DNA from: Alphaproteobacteria bacterium
GTDB lineage: Bacteria; Pseudomonadota; Alphaproteobacteria; Bin95
DNA length: 36,703 nt
Reading direction: 5' to 3'
Assembly (NCBI GenBank): GCA_026706245.1
Contig: JAPOZD010000030.1
Location: 1-36,703 of the forward strand
Shown here: piece after piece, positions 1-36,703 of the stretch
How positions within the stretch are numbered: position 1 is the first letter of the stretch
How the letters are laid out: the number at the start of each line of letters is the position of its first letter
The notes under the pieces: model-generated
What the model saw: the letters and a program-made list of their open reading frames with translations, nothing else
Told to the model about the DNA's origin: nothing
Databases searched by the model: none
Made by a program: the position numbers and the translations under genes

Positions 1-51
1 TTCGGGAGAAAGAAACGACGCTATCTCAGATAGTTAGCACCCAACGGTGCG
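1..51 (-). mobile_element. Probable terminus of an inserted element (rest lies outside the window), related to the junction at ~33020-33076
   Basis: The minus strand reads CGCACCGTTGGGTGCTAACTATCTGAGATAGCGTCGTTTCTTTCTC. This resembles CGCACCTTCGGTTCTAAGGTATTGATACAGCGTTTGTTTTTCCTC upstream of the tandem integrases. It coincides with the abrupt end of the dehalogenase ORF and a drop in GC. Confidence 0.6.
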
Positions 52-1287
52 CTCCACGGTGTCGTAGCCCTGGTCGATCAGCATGACGACGGCGTAGCGG
101 TGATACATCTCTATCGGGCTGCCGTCCTCCCGGTGCGAGAACCAGGCGTAGCGCGGAATCTCGCAAATGCCGGTCAGGTCGGAGCCCAGGAAATAGGAGA
201 GCGCCTTGACCGCGCGCGCATTCGCCGCCGGGTCCCCATAGTGGTCCCTGTCCCATTCCGAAGCCGTTTCGCCGTCCTGGTGGGGCACCATGGCGCGGAT
301 GAGCTGCAGCTGGCTGAAGGACAGCGGGTGCTTGAAGGCGAAGCGGGCGCGCTCGCGCCGGGACTTCTCGCCGAGATCGCCCTTGGCCGCGCGGGTGAAG
401 AAGGCCGCGCGCTGCGGCACGCGCGGCACCTCCTCGTCGATGATGAGGGTGGTGGGCCGGTCCACGCGGCGGACCTGCTCCATCGGGTAGCGGCTCCAGT
501 GCGATTTCCGACGGGCCCGGCGCGCGCGCTCGCGGCCGGAGACGGCGCCGGCGATGCCCTTGCGGTAGGCCCGGTTGCGTGCGCCGGCCGCGCCCGGAGC
601 CAGCGGGCTGTCGCATTCCAGTTCGTAGTTGGTCGAGATTACGGCGAGCGCGAAGCCGCCTTCGATATAGGGGTTGAGCAGCCCGCCGCCTTGCCTGCGC
701 AGGCAGAGCCCGGCCAGCACGGCGAGCCGCTTCCGGTCGAGGCCCTCATCGCCGGCATGGTGGATTCGGGCTTCGAAGCCCATCTGGCGGATATGGCCGG
801 CGGTGCAGCCGGCGATTTCCAGCACGCGCATTTCGGCCGTGGCAGCGACGGCGTCCTCCACCCAGGCACGGGCGAGGTTGCCCCGGTCCGGCAGGGCGGG
901 ACAGGCCACCAGGATGACGACCGCATGGCTGTGGCCTTCCAGCGCCTCAGAGCCTTCCAGCCAGGCGTTCTCCGGGATCCGGCAGATGCCCACCTGGTCG
1001 GCGTCCATGAAATATGAGCAGCCCTTGATGTCCTCGGCGCGCCGGTCGAGCCGGGCCGGCACGGGCGCCGTCTCCGCCGCCGGGCCGCCCTCGGCGAAGC
1101 CGGCGAACAGCTCGCGGTAGTGCAGCACGGCCGGCCCGAGCGCGCCGCCGGCCGCCGCAGCCTCCGTCGGTCCGGCCGGCGGCTGCGCTGCCTCCGCCGC
1201 GACTACGGAGTCGTCCCGCGGCAGCACCTCCATCGGATAGGTGCCGAGATGGAACGGCCGGTTCTTCGATGCGTGGTGGAACAGCAT
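34..1287 (-). pseudogene. rdhA: Catabolic-type (NpRdhA/BhbA-like) reductive dehalogenase, 3'-truncated
   Basis: Internally duplicated module: 'RPFHLGTYPME...IKGCSYFMDADQVGICRIP' and 'SHWSRYPME...VKALSYFLGSDLTGICEIPRYAWFSH...YAVVMLIDQGYDT', as in catabolic B12-dependent dehalogenases. No Tat signal. The ORF stops just after 'DQGYDTVE', before any Fe-S cysteine motif. Confidence 0.8.
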
Positions 1288-2842: not shown

Positions 2843-3958
2843 CTATTCGGCGGCGGCGGCGAGCGGCGGGGCGGCGCCGATCTCGACGCCGGTGTCGTGC
2901 GCCTTGAGGCGGGGCAACACCTTCTCGGCGAAGAGGCGCTGGTTCTCGCGCGCGATGTCGTAGGGCATGCCGCCATAGGAGAGCGCGGCCAGGAAGCCGC
3001 CGCAGCCCGCGCGCTCGACATTGGCGATGACGCCCTCCACCACCTCGTCCGGCGTGCCCCAGACCTGGAGGTCGGCGAGGAAGCGCACGAAGGTATCGAT
3101 GCCGTGCTTGTGGATGTTGCGGGCGAGCGCGCCGTAATATTCGTAGCCCGGAATGTCGGCCAGGCCCTCATTGTGGAACTCGTAGTGCTTGAGCGCCGAG
3201 CGGCAGTAGCCGACGATGTAGTTCTCATACATCTCGCGCGCCTTCTCGCGGTCCTCATGCACGGCGACGAAACTCGCGATGATCGGCTTCGGCGCTTCCT
3301 CGCCATTATTGTGCTGCCGGTAGAGCTCGCGGTAGTTCTCCAGCTCCTCCAGCGTCTTCTCCCAGGGCTTCTGGGCGATGATGAGGATGCCGATGCCGAG
3401 CCGCGCCATGATCTCCGCCGACTGCGGCGAGACGGAGGCCGCATAGGTGCGCCCGCGGAAGGACTTGAAGGGCTTCGGCCGGATGTCGGTCGGTGGCTGG
3501 CGGAGATGCTTGCCGTCGCTCTCGATCGTGCCGGTCTCGAGCGCGCCCATCACCGCTTCGGCATATTCGACGAAGCGCTCGCGGCTCTCGCCCATATTGA
3601 GGCGGAAGCCGTTGAACTCGACCCGCCCGAGGCCGCGCCCCATGCCGAAGATCACCCGCCCGTCCGACAGGTGGTCCAGCAGCGCAAGCTCCTCCGCGAC
3701 CCGCACCGGCTCGTGCCAGGGCAGCACGACCACCATGGTGCCTAGCCCGGCGCGCGTCGTCCGCCCGGCCATGTAGGTCAGGAACTGGGTCACGCTCGGG
3801 CACATGGTGTAGTCGGTGAAATGGTGCTCGGCCGACCAGATGCTGTCGAAGCCCATCGGCTCCGCCGCCTCGGCCAGCGCCACCTCCTGCCGCCAGACCT
3901 CGCGGTCGGTGAGTTTCCTGTCGGGATTCTGGAAAAAGCAGCTCAGGCCGACATGCAT
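2843..3958 (-). CDS. LLM-class (luciferase-like) flavin-dependent oxidoreductase
   Basis: Motifs '[12 protein letters not shown]', '[31 protein letters not shown]', 'WGTPDEV' and '[10 protein letters not shown]'. Confidence 0.92.
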
Positions 3959-30603: not shown

Positions 30604-30679
30604 GGGCCCGTAGTTCAGCGGTTAGAACCCGCCGCTCATAACGGCGTTGTCGCAGGTTCGAATCCTGCCGGGCCCACCA
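30604..30679 (+). tRNA. tRNA with CAT anticodon, most likely tRNA-Ile2 (lysidine-modified)
   Basis: 76-nt cloverleaf: GGGCCCG/CGGGCCC acceptor stem, CTCATAA anticodon loop, GGTTCGAATCC T-arm and encoded CCA. Paired G1-C72 and no GGG/CCC anticodon stem argue against fMet. Confidence 0.93.
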
Positions 30680-32566: not shown

Positions 32567-33043
32567 ATGACCGATACCGGAACACCGAAACGCAAGCTGA
32601 TCGAAGGCCGGCCGGCCCTGATCGTCATCGACATCCAGCAATCCGCCTTCGTGGAGAAGGAGGTCCGCTCGATCCCGCACATGCCGGACTATGCCGAGCG
32701 GGTCGCCCGCGCCCGCTTCGCCATCGACCGGGCGCGCGAGACGGGAATCCCGATCGTCTTCATCCAGGAGATCCACCGGGCCGACCTTGTGGATTTCGGC
32801 CGCGAGCTCGACGGCAGCGAGGACATCCACTGCCTCGACAACAACCCGGAAACGGCGCTGGCGAAGGAGGTGACCGGCTTCCGCGAGGGGGATTACCTCA
32901 TCCAGAAGCGCCGCTATTCCGCCTTCTACGGCACCGATCTGGAAATCCTGCTGCGGGGGCTCGGGGCCGACACCCTGCTGCTGACGGGCGGGCTGACCGA
33001 TGTCTGCGTCCACTACACCATCGTGCCGCACCTTCGGTTCTAA
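32567..33043 (+). pseudogene. Isochorismatase-family cysteine hydrolase, 3'-truncated by an insertion
   Basis: Motifs 'PALIVIDIQ', 'KRRYSAFYGTDL..LLRGLG.DTLLLTG' and catalytic 'TDVCVHYT'. Ends seven codons later, lacking the C-terminal strand/helix region of the fold. Confidence 0.8.
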
Positions 33044-33072
33044 GGTATTGATACAGCGTTTGTTTTTCCTCG

Positions 33073-33127
33073 TGCAATCGCAGGTTCGGGGCGGGAATGC
33101 AACCGTGTTTTCCCCCGCCTGCAAGCG
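33073..33127 (+). repeat. Three TGCAANCG direct repeats (candidate arm-type integrase sites)
   Basis: TGCAATCG at 33073, TGCAACCG at 33098 and TGCAAGCG at 33120, between the junction and the first integrase ATG. Confidence 0.5.
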
Positions 33128-33145
33128 GATGCAGGAGGAAAATGC

Positions 33146-34264
33146 ATGTCAACCGCCCGCCTCACAGAGAGCCGGATCGAGGGCTTCGGGCCCCGCAAAT
33201 CGCCCTATGACGTCCGTGATAGCGGGCTGAGGGGCTTCGGCGTTCGCGTCCTTCCCTCGGGGGCCAAACGCTACTTTATCCACAGCCAGCATGAGGGCCG
33301 CCGGGTCTGGAAGACGGTGGGCGACGCCCGCAGCATGGACATCGACGAAGCCCGCCGGCGCGCTGCGGCGGTGCTGGCCGCGCTCCGGCGCGACGAGGCG
33401 CCCGTCCTGCCGGAAGAGAGGCTGTTCGAGGCCGTGGCGGAGGAAGTCTTCGAGCGCTACGGACGGCGCTGGAAGCCCGGAACCCTGAAGGTCAACCGGA
33501 ACTATCTGCGCAGCACGATCCTTCCGTGGTTCGGCGGGATGAACATCGCCGACATCGCAAGGCAGGACGCGCAGCGCTGGTTCGCCTCCCTGCATGCGAC
33601 GCCGGTGGCGGCCGACCGGTCGGCGCCGATCCTTTCCGTCATCATGCGCCAGGCCGAGGTCTACGGCTACCGCCCGGAGGGCAGTAACCCCTGCACCGGC
33701 ATCCGACGTTACCGGCGCAAGGGAAGGGAGCGGTTCCTGTCGGAGCCGGAGCTTCGCCGGCTCGCGCAAGTGCTGGACCGTCACGAGGCGCGCCGTCCCC
33801 GCAAGGCGGCGTTCGTGCGCCTGCTTCTGCTGACCGGCTGCCGCAAGACCGAGATCGCGACGCTGGCCTGGTCCGACTACCGGGACGGGCGGCTGTTCCT
33901 GCGCGACGGCAAGGCGGGGCCCCGGACGGTCTGGCTGTCCTCCCCGGCGCGCGCCGTGCTGGGCAGTCTTCCGCGTGAGAACAAATGGGTCTTTCCCTCG
34001 CCGCGTGGGCAGGGCCCCATGACAGCGGCCGTTTTCGACAAGTTCTGGGGCCGGGTTCGGGAGGAGGCGGGGATCGCCGATGTCCGGCTTCACGACTGCC
34101 GCCATACATATGCCAGCATCGCCATCATGGCTGGCGAGAGCGTCACGACCACGGCGCGGCTGCTCGGACACAACGATGCCGGAACGACGCTGAAATACGC
34201 CCATTTGTCCGATCGCTCGGTGCGCGAGGCCGCCGACGCCCTTGCCGGCATTCTCGGGAGTTGA
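33146..34264 (+). CDS. Tyrosine integrase 1 with N-terminal arm-DNA-binding (DUF4102-like) domain
   Basis: 'YDVRDSGLRGFGVRVLPSGAK'. Catalytic set: 'TGCRKTEI', 'DGKAG', 'HDCRH' and 'LLGH....TTLKYAH'. AGGAGG RBS. Confidence 0.93.
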   Translation: MSTARLTESRIEGFGPRKSPYDVRDSGLRGFGVRVLPSGAKRYFIHSQHEGRRVWKTVGDARSMDIDEARRRAAAVLAALRRDEAPVLPEERLFEAVAEEVFERYGRRWKPGTLKVNRNYLRSTILPWFGGMNIADIARQDAQRWFASLHATPVAADRSAPILSVIMRQAEVYGYRPEGSNPCTGIRRYRRKGRERFLSEPELRRLAQVLDRHEARRPRKAAFVRLLLLTGCRKTEIATLAWSDYRDGRLFLRDGKAGPRTVWLSSPARAVLGSLPRENKWVFPSPRGQGPMTAAVFDKFWGRVREEAGIADVRLHDCRHTYASIAIMAGESVTTTARLLGHNDAGTTLKYAHLSDRSVREAADALAGILGS

Positions 34265-34267
34265 GCG

Positions 34268-35446
34268 ATGCCGGACCGCAGGAGGCTCACCGATGCCGGC
34301 ATTGCGCGGCTCCGGGCCGGGGCGCGCGAATATACCGTATGGGACACGCAGGTCGCCGGTCTCGGCGTGCGGGTGCGTCCCTCCGGCAGCCGGACCTTCA
34401 TCTACCACCGCAAGACGGGCCGGGGCGTGCGGAAACTGTCTTTCGGCCCGGCGGCGCTCAGCGAGGTGGAAGCGGTGCGCCGCGCCTGCATGGAGGCGGC
34501 GGCAAGCGGGGACACGGGCGCCAGTAACGAGCCTCGCGAAAAGGCGCCCCGGTTCCGGGACTTCGTCGCCGGCCCGTGGAGGAGGGACCGCTTCGCGCGC
34601 TGCAAGCCCTCCACGCAGAGAAACTTCGACGGCCTCCTGGAGCGGCAGTTGCTCCCGGCCTTCGGGGCCCGGCGCATCGACCGGATCGCCCGGCGCGCGG
34701 TCATCCGCTGGTTCGAGGCCTGCAGCCGGACCGCGCCGGGGACGGCCAATGCCGCTCTCGACCTGCTCGGTCACATCCTCAACCATGCGCTGGCGCTCGG
34801 GCATATCGGGACCAACCCGACAAGAGGCATCGCCCGCAATCCGGGCCGGAAGATGACGCGCTTCCTGTCGCGCGAGGAGATCGCCCGCCTCCACCGGGTC
34901 CTCGACCGCCATGCCGCAGGGTCCCGGTCGGAAGCGCAGCAGGCCGACACGATCCGCCTGCTGCTGCTCACCGGCTGCCGCAAGGGTGAAATCCTGCGTC
35001 TTCGCCGGGAGGAAGTGAAGGGCGACCGGCTGGAGCTCCAGGACAGCAAGACCGGGCCCCGAACGCTCCTGATCAACGGCCCGGCCAGGGAGAGCGTCGC
35101 GCGCCGCATGGCGGAAGGGACCGGCCCCTGGCTGTTCCCTTCTGTCAGGGACCCGTCGCGGCCCCAGTGCCGGGGCCTGCCCTTCTGGTACCGGGCGCGC
35201 CGCGAGGCCGGGATCGAGGATGTGCGCCTGCACGATCTGCGCCATACGGTAGCCAGCCAGGCGGCGATGAACGGCGTTCCGCTGCCCACGGTCGCCGGCC
35301 TGCTCGGCCACAGCAATGTGCGCATGACCATGCGCTACGCCCATGTCGGGGACCGCGAGGTCGAAGCGGCGGCCGAGCGGGTTGGCCGGGCCATCATGTC
35401 CATGATGGGCGGCACCGAAAATCTGCCCAGCTGCGGAACCCGTTGA
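34268..35446 (+). CDS. Tyrosine integrase 2 with N-terminal arm-DNA-binding domain, paralogue of integrase 1
   Basis: 'YTVWDTQVAGLGVRVRPSGSR'. Catalytic set: 'TGCRKGEI', 'DSKTG', 'HDLRH' and 'LLGHSNVRMTMRYAH'. Confidence 0.93.
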   Translation: MPDRRRLTDAGIARLRAGAREYTVWDTQVAGLGVRVRPSGSRTFIYHRKTGRGVRKLSFGPAALSEVEAVRRACMEAAASGDTGASNEPREKAPRFRDFVAGPWRRDRFARCKPSTQRNFDGLLERQLLPAFGARRIDRIARRAVIRWFEACSRTAPGTANAALDLLGHILNHALALGHIGTNPTRGIARNPGRKMTRFLSREEIARLHRVLDRHAAGSRSEAQQADTIRLLLLTGCRKGEILRLRREEVKGDRLELQDSKTGPRTLLINGPARESVARRMAEGTGPWLFPSVRDPSRPQCRGLPFWYRARREAGIEDVRLHDLRHTVASQAAMNGVPLPTVAGLLGHSNVRMTMRYAHVGDREVEAAAERVGRAIMSMMGGTENLPSCGTR

Positions 35447-35557
35447 ATTTATCGAACACTGGAAAGTTGACAGCCCCATCACCCTCCGCTGCCCGGCAAC
35501 ATCGGACGACGACCAGCATAGCTGAGGCAGCCGCCCCGCAGTTGCCTTGCCTTTGGG

Positions 35558-35585
35558 CTGTCCGATAATCCGTCCTATCTGCCAG
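35558..35585. other. Degenerate lox/dif-like crossover site at the 5' end of the Cre-like gene
   Basis: CTGTCCGATAA-TCCGTC-CTATCTGCCAG: 11-bp arms (8/11 complementary) around a 6-bp spacer. Confidence 0.4.
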
Positions 35586-36477
35586 ACAGGCGGCCGGCCC
35601 CGCTCGCGATCCCCGACCGGGCCGCCCAGGACCGCCACAGGCAAGCGCAGCGCAACGCATGGTCGCCCCATACCCGCCGCGCCTATCTCGCCGCCTGGCG
35701 GCGCTGGGAAGCATGGGCCGGCGAGCGCGGCCTGGAGACGCTCCCGGCCAACCCGGACCATATCGGCCTGTTCCTCGCCGCGCGCCGGCTCGCCGGCGTC
35801 GGCCTCGACGCGGTCCGCCAGGACGCCGCCGCCCATCGCCTCGCCGGCCAGGACAACCCGTGCGCCGCGGCCGACGTGACGCTCGCCCTGCGCGGCTATG
35901 CCCGCGACGACGCCGGGCGCGAGGTCCGCTAGGCTCGCCCGCTCGATACCGAGGCCGTCATGGCGATCCGCCTGCACCTTCGCGGCCGGGTCAACCGGTC
36001 CGCCCGCGCCGCCCGCGACATGGCTCTTGTCTCCGTCATGGCCGACGCCGGCCTCCGGCGCTCCGAAGCCGCCGCCCTGCTATGGAGCGACATTGCCGGG
36101 CCGGAGCCGGACGGGTCCGGCCGCGTCACGATCCGGCGCTCCTACAAGCCATATAACCCGGCATTTCGGCCTTGCCGTCTCACTAAAACACTACTATACA
36201 CGTCTTCGATGCGAGGAAGAACGACTTTCCACCTGAATGCCTACAAGCAATGTAACTCGATTTGTTCAGGCGCACCATCGCGCGCCGGATCGCGGCGCTC
36301 GCCGAAGCCGCCGAGCTCGGGCCGGGCTACTCCGGCCGCGTCGGCATGGCGATCCGCATGACGCGCGAGGGCGCTCCCAACGCCGTCGTCATGCGCCAGG
36401 GACGATGGGAGACGCCGGAAATGGTCGCCCGATACACGCGATCCGAAGCCGCCGGCGAGGCGCTCAAATATCTCTAA
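35582..36477 (+). pseudogene. Cre-like tyrosine recombinase pseudogene
   Basis: One frame reads 'SPHTRRAYLAAWRRWEAW...LPANP...AHRLAGQDNP...LRGYAR', then an in-frame TAG at 35930, then 'RDMALVSVMADAGLRRSE...GRVTIRRS'. Foreign sequence fills ~36141-36268. Another frame resumes 'RTIARRI...GYSGRVGMA...QGRW....MVARY'. No start codon found. Confidence 0.85.
36141..36256 (+). repeat. Pair of 17-bp imperfect direct repeats bracketing an AT-rich promoter-like segment
   Basis: CCTACAAGCCATATAAC (36141) and CCTACAAGCAATGTAAC (36240), 15/17 identical. TTGCCG-N17-TATACA lies at 36172-36200. Confidence 0.55.
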
Positions 36478-36703
36478 CCGGGCGAGCGCGATCCACCCGC
36501 CGCGCGCTCTAGCTCCCGGATCAAGTCTTTGCTAATGTTTGTGCCATCGACTAATCGATACAGCAGAATACAGCAGAACACAAAAGAGACACCGTTATGA
36601 GTGCATTGGATCGCCCCGAAGACCGAGTAAAAAAACAATCGGCCATAAACTGCATCAAAGACAACAGCAAAGCCAAATGGCGCGCCCAAGGAATTGGAGG
36701 CAG
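36474..36703 (-). other. Low-GC sequence, possibly the 3' end of a foreign gene entering from beyond the window
   Basis: Sharp GC drop after ~36520 and an open, hydrophobic minus-strand frame ending at 36474. No family recognised. Confidence 0.3.

Follow-up and report, generated by a model that had tools for sequence, protein, structure and literature searches.

Dehalogenase and isochorismatase-family genes cut at ACACC by probable members of one family of twin-integrase islands in an alphaproteobacterial genome

Why do two unrelated host genes, 33 kb apart on one bacterial contig, break off at junctions that resemble each other? The question is raised by contig JAPOZD010000030.1 of an Alphaproteobacteria bacterium (assembly GCA_026706245.1), which was analysed over its full 36,703 bp and is here called the window; a reductive dehalogenase gene is interrupted at its left end, and an isochorismatase-family gene is interrupted near its right end, in front of a tandem pair of integrase genes. 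The source genome (G000, with its contigs given C-numbers and the window being C21) comprises 455 contigs, 3.49 Mb and about 70% G+C; other genomes of the genus are numbered G005-G016 and so on, and L-numbers denote loci. Because the window is the entire contig, its base 1 is a contig end. The original prediction, made from the window alone, was that a second, diverged member of the element family to which the twin integrases belong had inserted into the dehalogenase gene, at a shared degenerate target and in the same orientation relative to the host gene. We conclude that positions 1-51 are very probably the integrase-proximal end (attL) of such a second island, from a diverged subfamily, inserted in an NpRdhA-type gene (rdhA) at ACACC-ATGGA, with the other half of the gene and the right end of the island (attR) lying on contig C224.

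The two junction strings that were compared in the prediction (the reverse complement of 69-1, and 33008-33076) are exact as it gave them, with 41 identities in 69 ungapped positions. When the 69-mer was slid over both window strands, this was the single best ungapped placement, with a runner-up of 33, and none of 200 first-order Markov shuffles of the window reached 41 (mean maximum 34.2, standard deviation 1.1, highest 38). The features of the left junction and of the island behind it (element 2) are listed below; N5 denotes the five bases that follow ACACC, numbered +1 to +5, and the basis of each assignment is given in brackets.

34-1287, minus strand: 5' fragment of an NpRdhA-type reductive dehalogenase gene, 415 native plus 2 foreign residues (PDB 4ras, orthologues)
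58-62, minus strand: ACACC core of the element 2 attL, common to the empty site and to the attR on C224 (orthologues, attL/attR pairs)
53-57, minus strand: N5 segment GTGGA of the element 2 attL, where host and attR read ATGGA, so that base 1 is foreign and bases 2-5 are those of the target (seven empty sites; attR at C224:175-189)
37-50, minus strand: terminal palindrome of element 2, GCACC-GTTG-GGTGC (junction comparison)
34-36, minus strand: element-supplied TAA that ends the truncated dehalogenase frame (a stop follows the palindrome in 100 of 101 junctions)
1-33, minus strand: sub-terminal left end of element 2, with the palindrome CTATC-TGA-GATAG and a T-rich tract, within which the contig breaks (blastn of window 1-52)

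Comparison with orthologues shows a real truncation of the dehalogenase gene, whose product stops at residue 415 of about 750. Residues 5-415 of the fragment align to residues 4-412 of the 704 in 4ras, the reductive dehalogenase NpRdhA (E 6e-99); the frame at 1287-34 has no Pfam match, and NCBIfam returned a weak match to TIGR02486. Matches occur in 15 of the 16 other genomes of the genus, and 13 full-length orthologous matches cover residues 1-415 of the 417-residue query inside open frames of 721-1050 codons. Seven orthologous loci read unbroken through the site, as GGCTACG-ACAC(C/G)-ATGGAG-GGGGCGAGC, and the L002 orthologue aligns to C21:52-2512 and then to C224:1167-175, with an overlap of 11 bp. 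The displaced 3' half on C224 is an open frame of 332 codons that carries the word CxxCxxCxxxCP of the iron-sulfur half and lies directly behind a conserved element right end. The two-part makeup of an NpRdhA-type enzyme is thus recovered, its N-terminal half in the window and its catalytic half on C224. The cut falls at the boundary between the N-terminal non-catalytic domain and the catalytic half (domains of the 4ras alignment end at 412 and restart at 415). An in-frame ATG stands right after ACACC at the start of the 3' half (C224:175-189), and separate translation of the catalytic half is conceivable.

The element side of this junction has relatives elsewhere in the genome. In blastn, window 1-52 is 87-95% identical to a stretch about 70 nucleotides (nt) upstream of the first integrase gene (int1) in the copies on C421 (twice), C128, C397 and C17, and it matches C303 at the same level. 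Since these matches belong to a subfamily whose int1 is about 60% identical to that of the right-hand element, element 2 is a diverged relative of the latter, as the prediction had it. No G000 contig exactly overlaps window base 1, the leftward search returning only the 87-95% matches to other copies, and contig C21 stops at element 2 because a repeat formed by a multi-copy island cannot be crossed by the assembler. The end on C303 (395-433, minus strand) is of a variant kind, with another terminal palindrome, GCCCGC..GCGGGC, before its TAA; tblastn found no integrase beside it.

At the other junction, the isochorismatase-family gene is, by the same kind of comparison, split by an element and not naturally short. 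The features there, together with the rest of the right-hand island (element 1), are all on the plus strand.

32567-33043, plus strand: 5' fragment of an isochorismatase-family hydrolase gene, about 153 native residues, cut just past the conserved Cys motif (Pfam PF00857, orthologues)
33015-33024, plus strand: attL of element 1, ACACC followed by N5 ATCGT, where host and attR read ACACC TTCGT (attR at C258:8867-8858, minus strand; empty sites, attL/attR pairs)
33028-33043, plus strand: palindrome of element 1, GCACC-TTC-GGTTC, followed by TAA (junction pattern)
33044-33145, plus strand: non-coding left end of element 1 with three TGCAA words, at 33073-33077, 33098-33102 and 33120-33124 (TGCAA counts)
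33146-34264, plus strand: int1, a tyrosine integrase with an Arm DNA-binding domain (Pfam PF00589, PF13356, PF14659, PF22022; XerD alignment)
34268-35446, plus strand: int2, a paralogous tyrosine integrase that starts 3 nt past the int1 stop (Pfam, comparison with int1)
35447-36703, plus strand: start of the element 1 cargo, with a broken third tyrosine recombinase, continuing on C258:12383-8868 (Pfam, pairing with C258)

The window contains the PF00857 domain only as far as profile positions 2-132 of 175, the remainder being on C258. Nine same-genus orthologues match residues 1-153 of the 158 in the fragment, five orthologues read GTCCACT-ACAC(C/T)-TTCGTC-GA.GGCCA across the cut and so give the empty site, and L010 aligns to C21 up to 33024 and then to C258:8867-7599, with an overlap of 10 bp. 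Element 1 starts at 33026. The alignment to intact orthologues that the prediction had proposed as a check has therefore located both displaced 3' halves, on C224 for rdhA and on C258 for the isochorismatase, and neither gene ends naturally at its cut point, orthologues running past both.

The two window integrases match PF00589 with E-values of 3e-20 and 9e-21 and are 40% identical to each other over their full length. Both have the motifs TGCRK.E, HD.RH, LLGH and (K/R)YAH, across which int1 aligns to XerD, and both keep the catalytic R..HxxR..H..Y set of a tyrosine-recombinase island. In a tblastn search of G000 with the window integrases, tandem pairs were found on C385, C26 and C227 with int1 79-85% identical to that of the window, and on C421, C17, C200 and C128 with int1 about 60% identical. 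A further copy, on C231, ends some 40 codons into the second integrase gene. C421 has a second, partial copy besides its pair, C397 retains a stub of 48 residues, and C268 carries a single, distantly related gene. The DNA common to 11 G000 copies runs from about 120 nt before int1 through the int2 stop, and the copies share, in addition, a right end.

The left ends have a recognisable order, which from the outside inwards is ACACC, N5, 1-3 bases, a palindrome of 5+5 bases with a loop of 3-5 nt, and a stop codon; inward of the stop lie a second small palindrome, a T-run, and TGCAA words some 75, 50 and 25 nt upstream of the start of int1. Scanned as the pattern ACAC[CA], 5-9 nt, GCA[CT]C, 3-5 nt, G[GA]T[GT]C and a stop, the G000 genome gave 12 matches, every one at a left end (the variant on C303 being extra), vs 0-1 in each of 10 shuffled genomes. 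Over 101 unique junctions, the arm pairs of the palindrome are GCACC/GGTGC in 72, GCATC/GATGC in 13, GCACC/GGTTC in 13 and others in 3, and the triplet that follows is TAA in 90, TGA in 8, TAG in 2 and TAT in 1. The distance from ACAC to the palindrome is 7 nt in 57 of 100 unique junctions, 8 nt in 20 and 6 nt in 19. Palindrome plus stop is found in 77 of the 80 loci kept from a wider scan described below, and TGCAA occurs one to four times in 77 of 79 left ends, vs 0.1 expected per 120 nt; these words are candidate arm-type integrase sites or part of the promoter region. The shared target proposed by the prediction is borne out as ACACC, with ACAC in 98 and the full word in 91 of 100 unique junctions. 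Its count of 9 of 12 agreeing host-side bases is right for the two window junctions, but positions -12 to -1 are unconserved over the 100 unique junctions, where only ACACC is general; host flank and N5 (the latter across 98 junctions) have near-background composition. Likewise, a TAA seven codons past the in-frame ACC is present in both window genes, but the distance from ACACC to the stop varies between 19 and 21 nt across the 12 G000 junctions, and a stop always in frame with ACACC is rejected. These two insertions do share their orientation with respect to the host gene, but as a rule of the family this is unsupported: among 94 flanks the longest open frame is in the sense direction with ACC in frame in 34, in another sense frame in 19 and antisense in 32, with no frame of at least 80 codons in 9, in a test that is rough since shadow frames are common in G+C-rich DNA.

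Right ends could be followed in the same way. The 174 bases before the rdhA 3' half recur on C404, C273 and C309, which are 86%, 85% and 71% identical, respectively, to the 174-179 bases of C224, and the homology among these three extends to about 420 bp, as far as the contig ends. Right ends of subfamily A lie on C237, C324 and C258, and one more right end is on C280; in the wider set, right ends came within 19 kb in 2 of 16 loci (L015 and L020), the other elements being longer or diverged. Eight attL/attR pairs were resolved, of which C17/C280 and C227/C324 were found by synteny alone and the others partly by N5 similarity. ACACC plus N5 is present at both ends in all eight, as a direct repeat containing the target core, and stands in single copy in the empty sites available for six; host continuity through orthologues was established for the same number (rdhA, isochorismatase, an MBL-fold gene at C385/C237, C421/C309, C17/C280 and C227/C324). 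Within every pair, bases +2 to +5 are identical, and identity mostly stops after +5. Base +1 differs in four of the eight, with attR and the orthologues reading A, T, A and T where attL reads G, A, T and G. In two sets of sites the attL N5 equals the empty-site N5 in 5 of 6 and 4 of 7 cases, and the remainder differ by one base (from the set of seven the L110 row was dropped for its 81% identity and unreadable site, and L031 was not used as an empty site, G000 being occupied there).

Taken together, enzymes, hybrid repeats and empty sites make conservative site-specific recombination of islands the most likely process on this comparative evidence. In the mechanism we propose, Int1 and Int2 would act together, in the manner of XerC and XerD, on a circular form with the joint right end-ACACC-N5-left end, and this joint would undergo conservative strand exchange with a chromosomal ACACC-N5, the cuts being staggered across N5 and the end of ACACC. 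Proteins would recognise the ACACC word, and base pairing would test N5, perhaps together with the last C or CC of ACACC (an overlap of 6-7 bp), while a mismatch at the first N5 base would be tolerated, leaving the imperfect 10-bp repeats. Binding sites of the core-adjacent and arm types are probably provided by the palindrome, the sub-terminal AGATAG and TACAG words and the TGCAA repeats. Excision could let an island adopt the N5 of its last site, as experiments have shown for GInts, so that target choice would drift; the family could in this way colonise many ACACC sites. If islands hop often, or copies undergo gene conversion, the link between N5 and the element body could be lost. That the exchange is tested by pairing is, in our estimate, about an even call. 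It is favoured by the foreign +1 base in attL, which cannot come from target duplication, and by signs of N5 inheritance: three A1-type elements at two genes all have ACACC-W-TCGT, and full agreement over bases +2 to +5 is found in 3 of 24 close element pairs with unlike flanks vs 14 of 3583 distant pairs. L096 and L102 moreover share GGAATACACCTTAGC. On the whole the results on inheritance of N5 within element lineages are mixed.

Several observations weigh against the reading just given. The foreign +1 base is in attL in all four cases (4:0), where random heteroduplex segregation would leave it in attR about half the time (two-sided p 0.125), and all four mismatches come from G000, one fragmented assembly, with none elsewhere in two pairs and one in 13 comparisons of attL with an empty site. 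Close relatives can have unlike N5 segments, ATTAT vs CAATC in L064/L065 (98.3% identical over 1.2 kb) and GGGCA vs GACAG in L033/L039 (95.8% identical); strict homology predicts a shared N5, so these cases call for gene conversion among copies or for rewriting that happens often. The integrase genes of element 2 are not in the G000 assembly, and element 2 is for this reason deduced from its two ends only. The circular joint was not seen when L015 was compared with assembled Logan read contigs, which cannot show rare forms.

If instead insertion took place at any ACACC irrespective of N5, the 10 bp would be truly duplicated from the target. The outcome would be transposon-like, reached by repair synthesis or by one-strand exchange followed by replication and not by a reciprocal exchange in which homology is tested. 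Such a process would account for target bases +2 to +5 standing at both junctions in all eight pairs, for the agreement of attL and empty-site N5 segments in most sites with the others one base off, and for an N5 that is near background over 98 junctions, is unrelated between near-identical elements and covaries with no element column. In keeping with the last point, element sequence as a pairing guide for N5 was rejected for the left end, no column of 93 left ends matching or complementing any N5 position in more than 44%, and three right ends about 80-86% alike flank differing N5 segments. Yet a duplication should give repeats that are perfect when made, whereas half of the G000 pairs (4 of 8) differ, and at +1 exclusively; the extended target kept in some lineages (the A1-type word, and L096/L102) and the excess of +2 to +5 matches in close pairs also speak against it. 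No tyrosine recombinase is known to make target duplications, which counts against it further, and we regard this explanation as unlikely. We give still less weight to a third possibility, that the ends are used as folded single strands in the style of integron attC or CTX-phage attP sites, hairpins building the site and one strand being exchanged before replication completes the process. The palindrome arms do change in paired fashion (GCATC/GATGC in 13 of 101, vs about 2 expected from the marginals), their loops vary freely, an AT-rich palindrome abuts ACACC at the right end, one cargo has an SSB gene and a NikA-like relaxosome gene lies near a right end; but symmetric change is equally expected of a duplex site that binds a dimer, GGTTC breaks the pairing in 13 of 101, the stems are of 5 bp only, and one-strand exchange predicts the element N5 in attL, which is unseen beyond +1. 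Finally, the two window junctions face each other inverted, as the ends of one composite 33-kb unit would, and their likeness could in principle be due to chance at natural gene ends. In G008, 30.5 kb separates the two host genes, as against 31.3 kb in the window; their relative orientation is unchanged and the 31 kb between them is syntenic, so the 33 kb between the junctions is ordinary chromosome and not a mobile unit; each 3' half, in addition, stands behind a separate right end on another contig. Together with the orthologues that continue past both cuts and the shuffle controls, this refutes both versions, to which we assign next to no probability.

The family is widespread and its sites are polymorphic. 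Relatives of int1 occur in 15 of the 16 other genomes of the genus, and the word GCACC-N3-5-GGTGCTAA has 22, 14, 11, 9 and 6 copies in five complete sister genomes, the reversed control giving 0-2. A scan of one genome per species returned at least 593 stretches, of which at least 551 encode relatives, and 80 loci were kept, mostly from assemblies labelled Alphaproteobacteria, Rhodospirillales, Defluviicoccus, Paracoccaceae or Amylibacter, with a few bins otherwise labelled. The order int1 then int2 is present in 77 of these 80, with no conserved third gene. G000 is empty at five sites, covering six loci, where G009 or G015 is occupied, and at seven further sites, while at rdhA the reverse holds. 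The isochorismatase site is occupied in G016 as well (L031, int1 85% identical). One site, GAAGGGA-ACACC-GGATA, has an A-type element in G009 (L020) and a B-type element in G015 (L026), the int1 genes being about 60% identical, and is empty in G000 (C344). The left flanks of two ACACA-type loci in G015, L027 and L029, match 6 and 22 G000 contigs, respectively, at about 70-81%, and these elements seem to target a multi-copy host family. In run X2, a contig at L015 opens with 16 letters from the left host flank, immediately followed by the right junction, a loose end that hints, and only hints, at the empty-site form in the same sample. In runs X2-X4, contigs join L015 position 5405 back to 3707 with CAG between, which suggests an internal cargo segment (L015:3707-5405) in tandem or circular form. 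Among PLSDB plasmids, relatives are at most 41% identical and annotated as plain integrases, with at least one in a tandem pair. One candidate for a distant relative of the module in a cultured bacterium is a pair on the Polymorphobacter plasmid NZ_CP080245.1 (L137, 3219-5854), about 40% identical to int1; its genes overlap by 4 nt, and an ACACC lies some 65 nt upstream of the annotated start.

Beyond the integrases the islands vary. Two relatives are complete, L015 with 7.2 kb and L020 with 13.5 kb, and the C128 copy exceeds 23 kb. The L020 cargo includes a TRAP transporter, an SDR fragment, an SRAP domain, an IS630-type helix-turn-helix (HTH) domain and a TacA antitoxin, and that of L015 an SSB gene; most cargo frames have no Pfam match. 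From the right end of element 1, a gene for a NikA-like ribbon-helix-helix protein reads inwards (L121:489-1001, E 2e-6, L121 being G000:C258:8868-12383); frames that look similar by eye occur in C404 and C237, and no relaxase domain, which with or in place of an oriT would mark an integrative mobilizable element (IME), was found in the cargo frames scanned. Directly past int2 in L015, a short frame (3286-3501) matches DUF5372 in Pfam (E 3e-5), and a similar frame, split over two reading frames, is found in six distinct A-type copies (L015, L019, L020, L034, L035 and L050) and in none of those in G000; whether this is what is left of a third module gene is a matter of conjecture, though a decayed one is possible. 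In the right part of the C385/C237 element (C237:3-956), a frame resembles, by eye only, a group II intron reverse transcriptase.

In element 1 itself, the third recombinase is represented by remnants at 35960-36477 in two frames, which match PF00589 with E 0.004 and 1e-4; between the two frames, around 36140-36260, lies some 120 nt of G+C-poor filler, and G+C is likewise low over the final 220 bases of the window. The remnants appear to derive from a broken gene that is peculiar to this copy. Positions 35659-36156 of the window have no Pfam match, and, beyond the weak TIGR02486 match, the NCBIfam scan gave generic recombinase models only. At the Rfam gathering threshold the window has a tRNA gene alone (30604-30676; RF00005, 68.9 bits); it lies 2.3 kb before the insertion of element 1 and, unlike in many integrase islands, is not its target.

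Among known systems, the conjugative transposons Tn916 and CTnDOT, which are likewise tyrosine-recombinase elements, use a short conserved word and about five variable bases at the crossover, with many targets, as does the family described here. They have a single integrase with Xis-type helpers, and the coupling sequences that flank them differ, one being old and one new. In this the two systems depart from the present islands, whose N5 segments are alike at both ends.

GInts resemble the family in that one end of the cargo island carries the recombinase operon, and in their 10-11 nt imperfect direct repeats, which are hybrids of element and target, with staggered cuts and heteroduplex repair rewriting the site; in about half of excisions the site is rewritten to the overlap of the last target, and identity raises integration tenfold. 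A GInt needs the four genes ginABCD, three of them recombinase-like, and, as described, occupies one defined gene per host, whereas the present family conserves two arm-domain integrase paralogues of similar size and has 6-22 or more copies per genome at differing ACACC sites. Strand-biased circularizing integrative elements (SE) are alike in carrying a pair of catalytic tyrosine recombinases at their left end, in choosing semi-specific targets, in a short spacer beside the terminal motifs that records target and donor, and in variable cargo of about 7-16 kb (PMC10214605). Their core is intA-tfp-intB-srap with one large recombinase, unlike the gene content found here; they are reported only from Gammaproteobacteria and occur in 1-2 copies per replicon, in contrast to a multi-copy family in Alphaproteobacteria; and their ends carry different 6-bp spacers, that of the target in attL and that of the donor in attR, where the present islands have the target N5 at both ends and the foreign base in attL (PMC10214605). 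Tn554 shares two adjacent tyrosine recombinase genes, orientation-specific insertion and the lack of inverted-repeat/DDE machinery, but it has a short and a long recombinase plus TnpC, is found in Firmicutes (with relatives in Actinobacteria) and uses one preferred site (PMC10214605, PMC3414803). RIT (recombinase in trio) and BIM elements likewise have tandem tyrosine recombinase genes, come largely from Alpha- and Betaproteobacteria and owe their presumed mobility to their distribution; a RIT has three tandem recombinases instead of two, a BIM has one recombinase and an unrelated second protein in Betaproteobacteria, and neither is described in that work with an ACACC core or with ends like these (PMC3414803).

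By its gene content, two paralogous arm-domain integrases with no conserved third or fourth gene, the family falls outside GInt, SE, Tn554 and RIT, and it differs from them too in copy number, in host group and in having like N5 segments at both ends. Among the papers searched, none was found to describe such an element, and supplementary tables on GInt, SE or RIT elements could list relatives. We therefore put forward only tentatively, as a possibility with the balance against it, that the twin-integrase islands are an undescribed class of tyrosine-recombinase transposon, whose target is ACACC plus five bases copied from or rewritten by each new site and whose paired integrases each handle one side.

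Since its integrase recognises one long site, an integrase-borne island normally occurs in a single copy. The present two-integrase module, with a fixed word of 5 bp and a free segment of 5 bp, stands at a dozen or more sites per genome in many uncultured Alphaproteobacteria. Were the islands indeed an undescribed class, they would be a site-specific recombinase system that behaves like an insertion sequence, with 6-22 or more copies per genome. The islands cut metabolic genes, among them a dehalogenase, a hydrolase and an MBL-fold gene, and carry transporters, toxin-antitoxin pairs and putative mobilisation genes. They also account for the assembly of these genomes in hundreds of pieces and for the truncated look of genes at contig ends. 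The triplets of attL, attR and empty site offer a natural series for the trade between specificity and spread, and for the question of overlap homology versus duplication.

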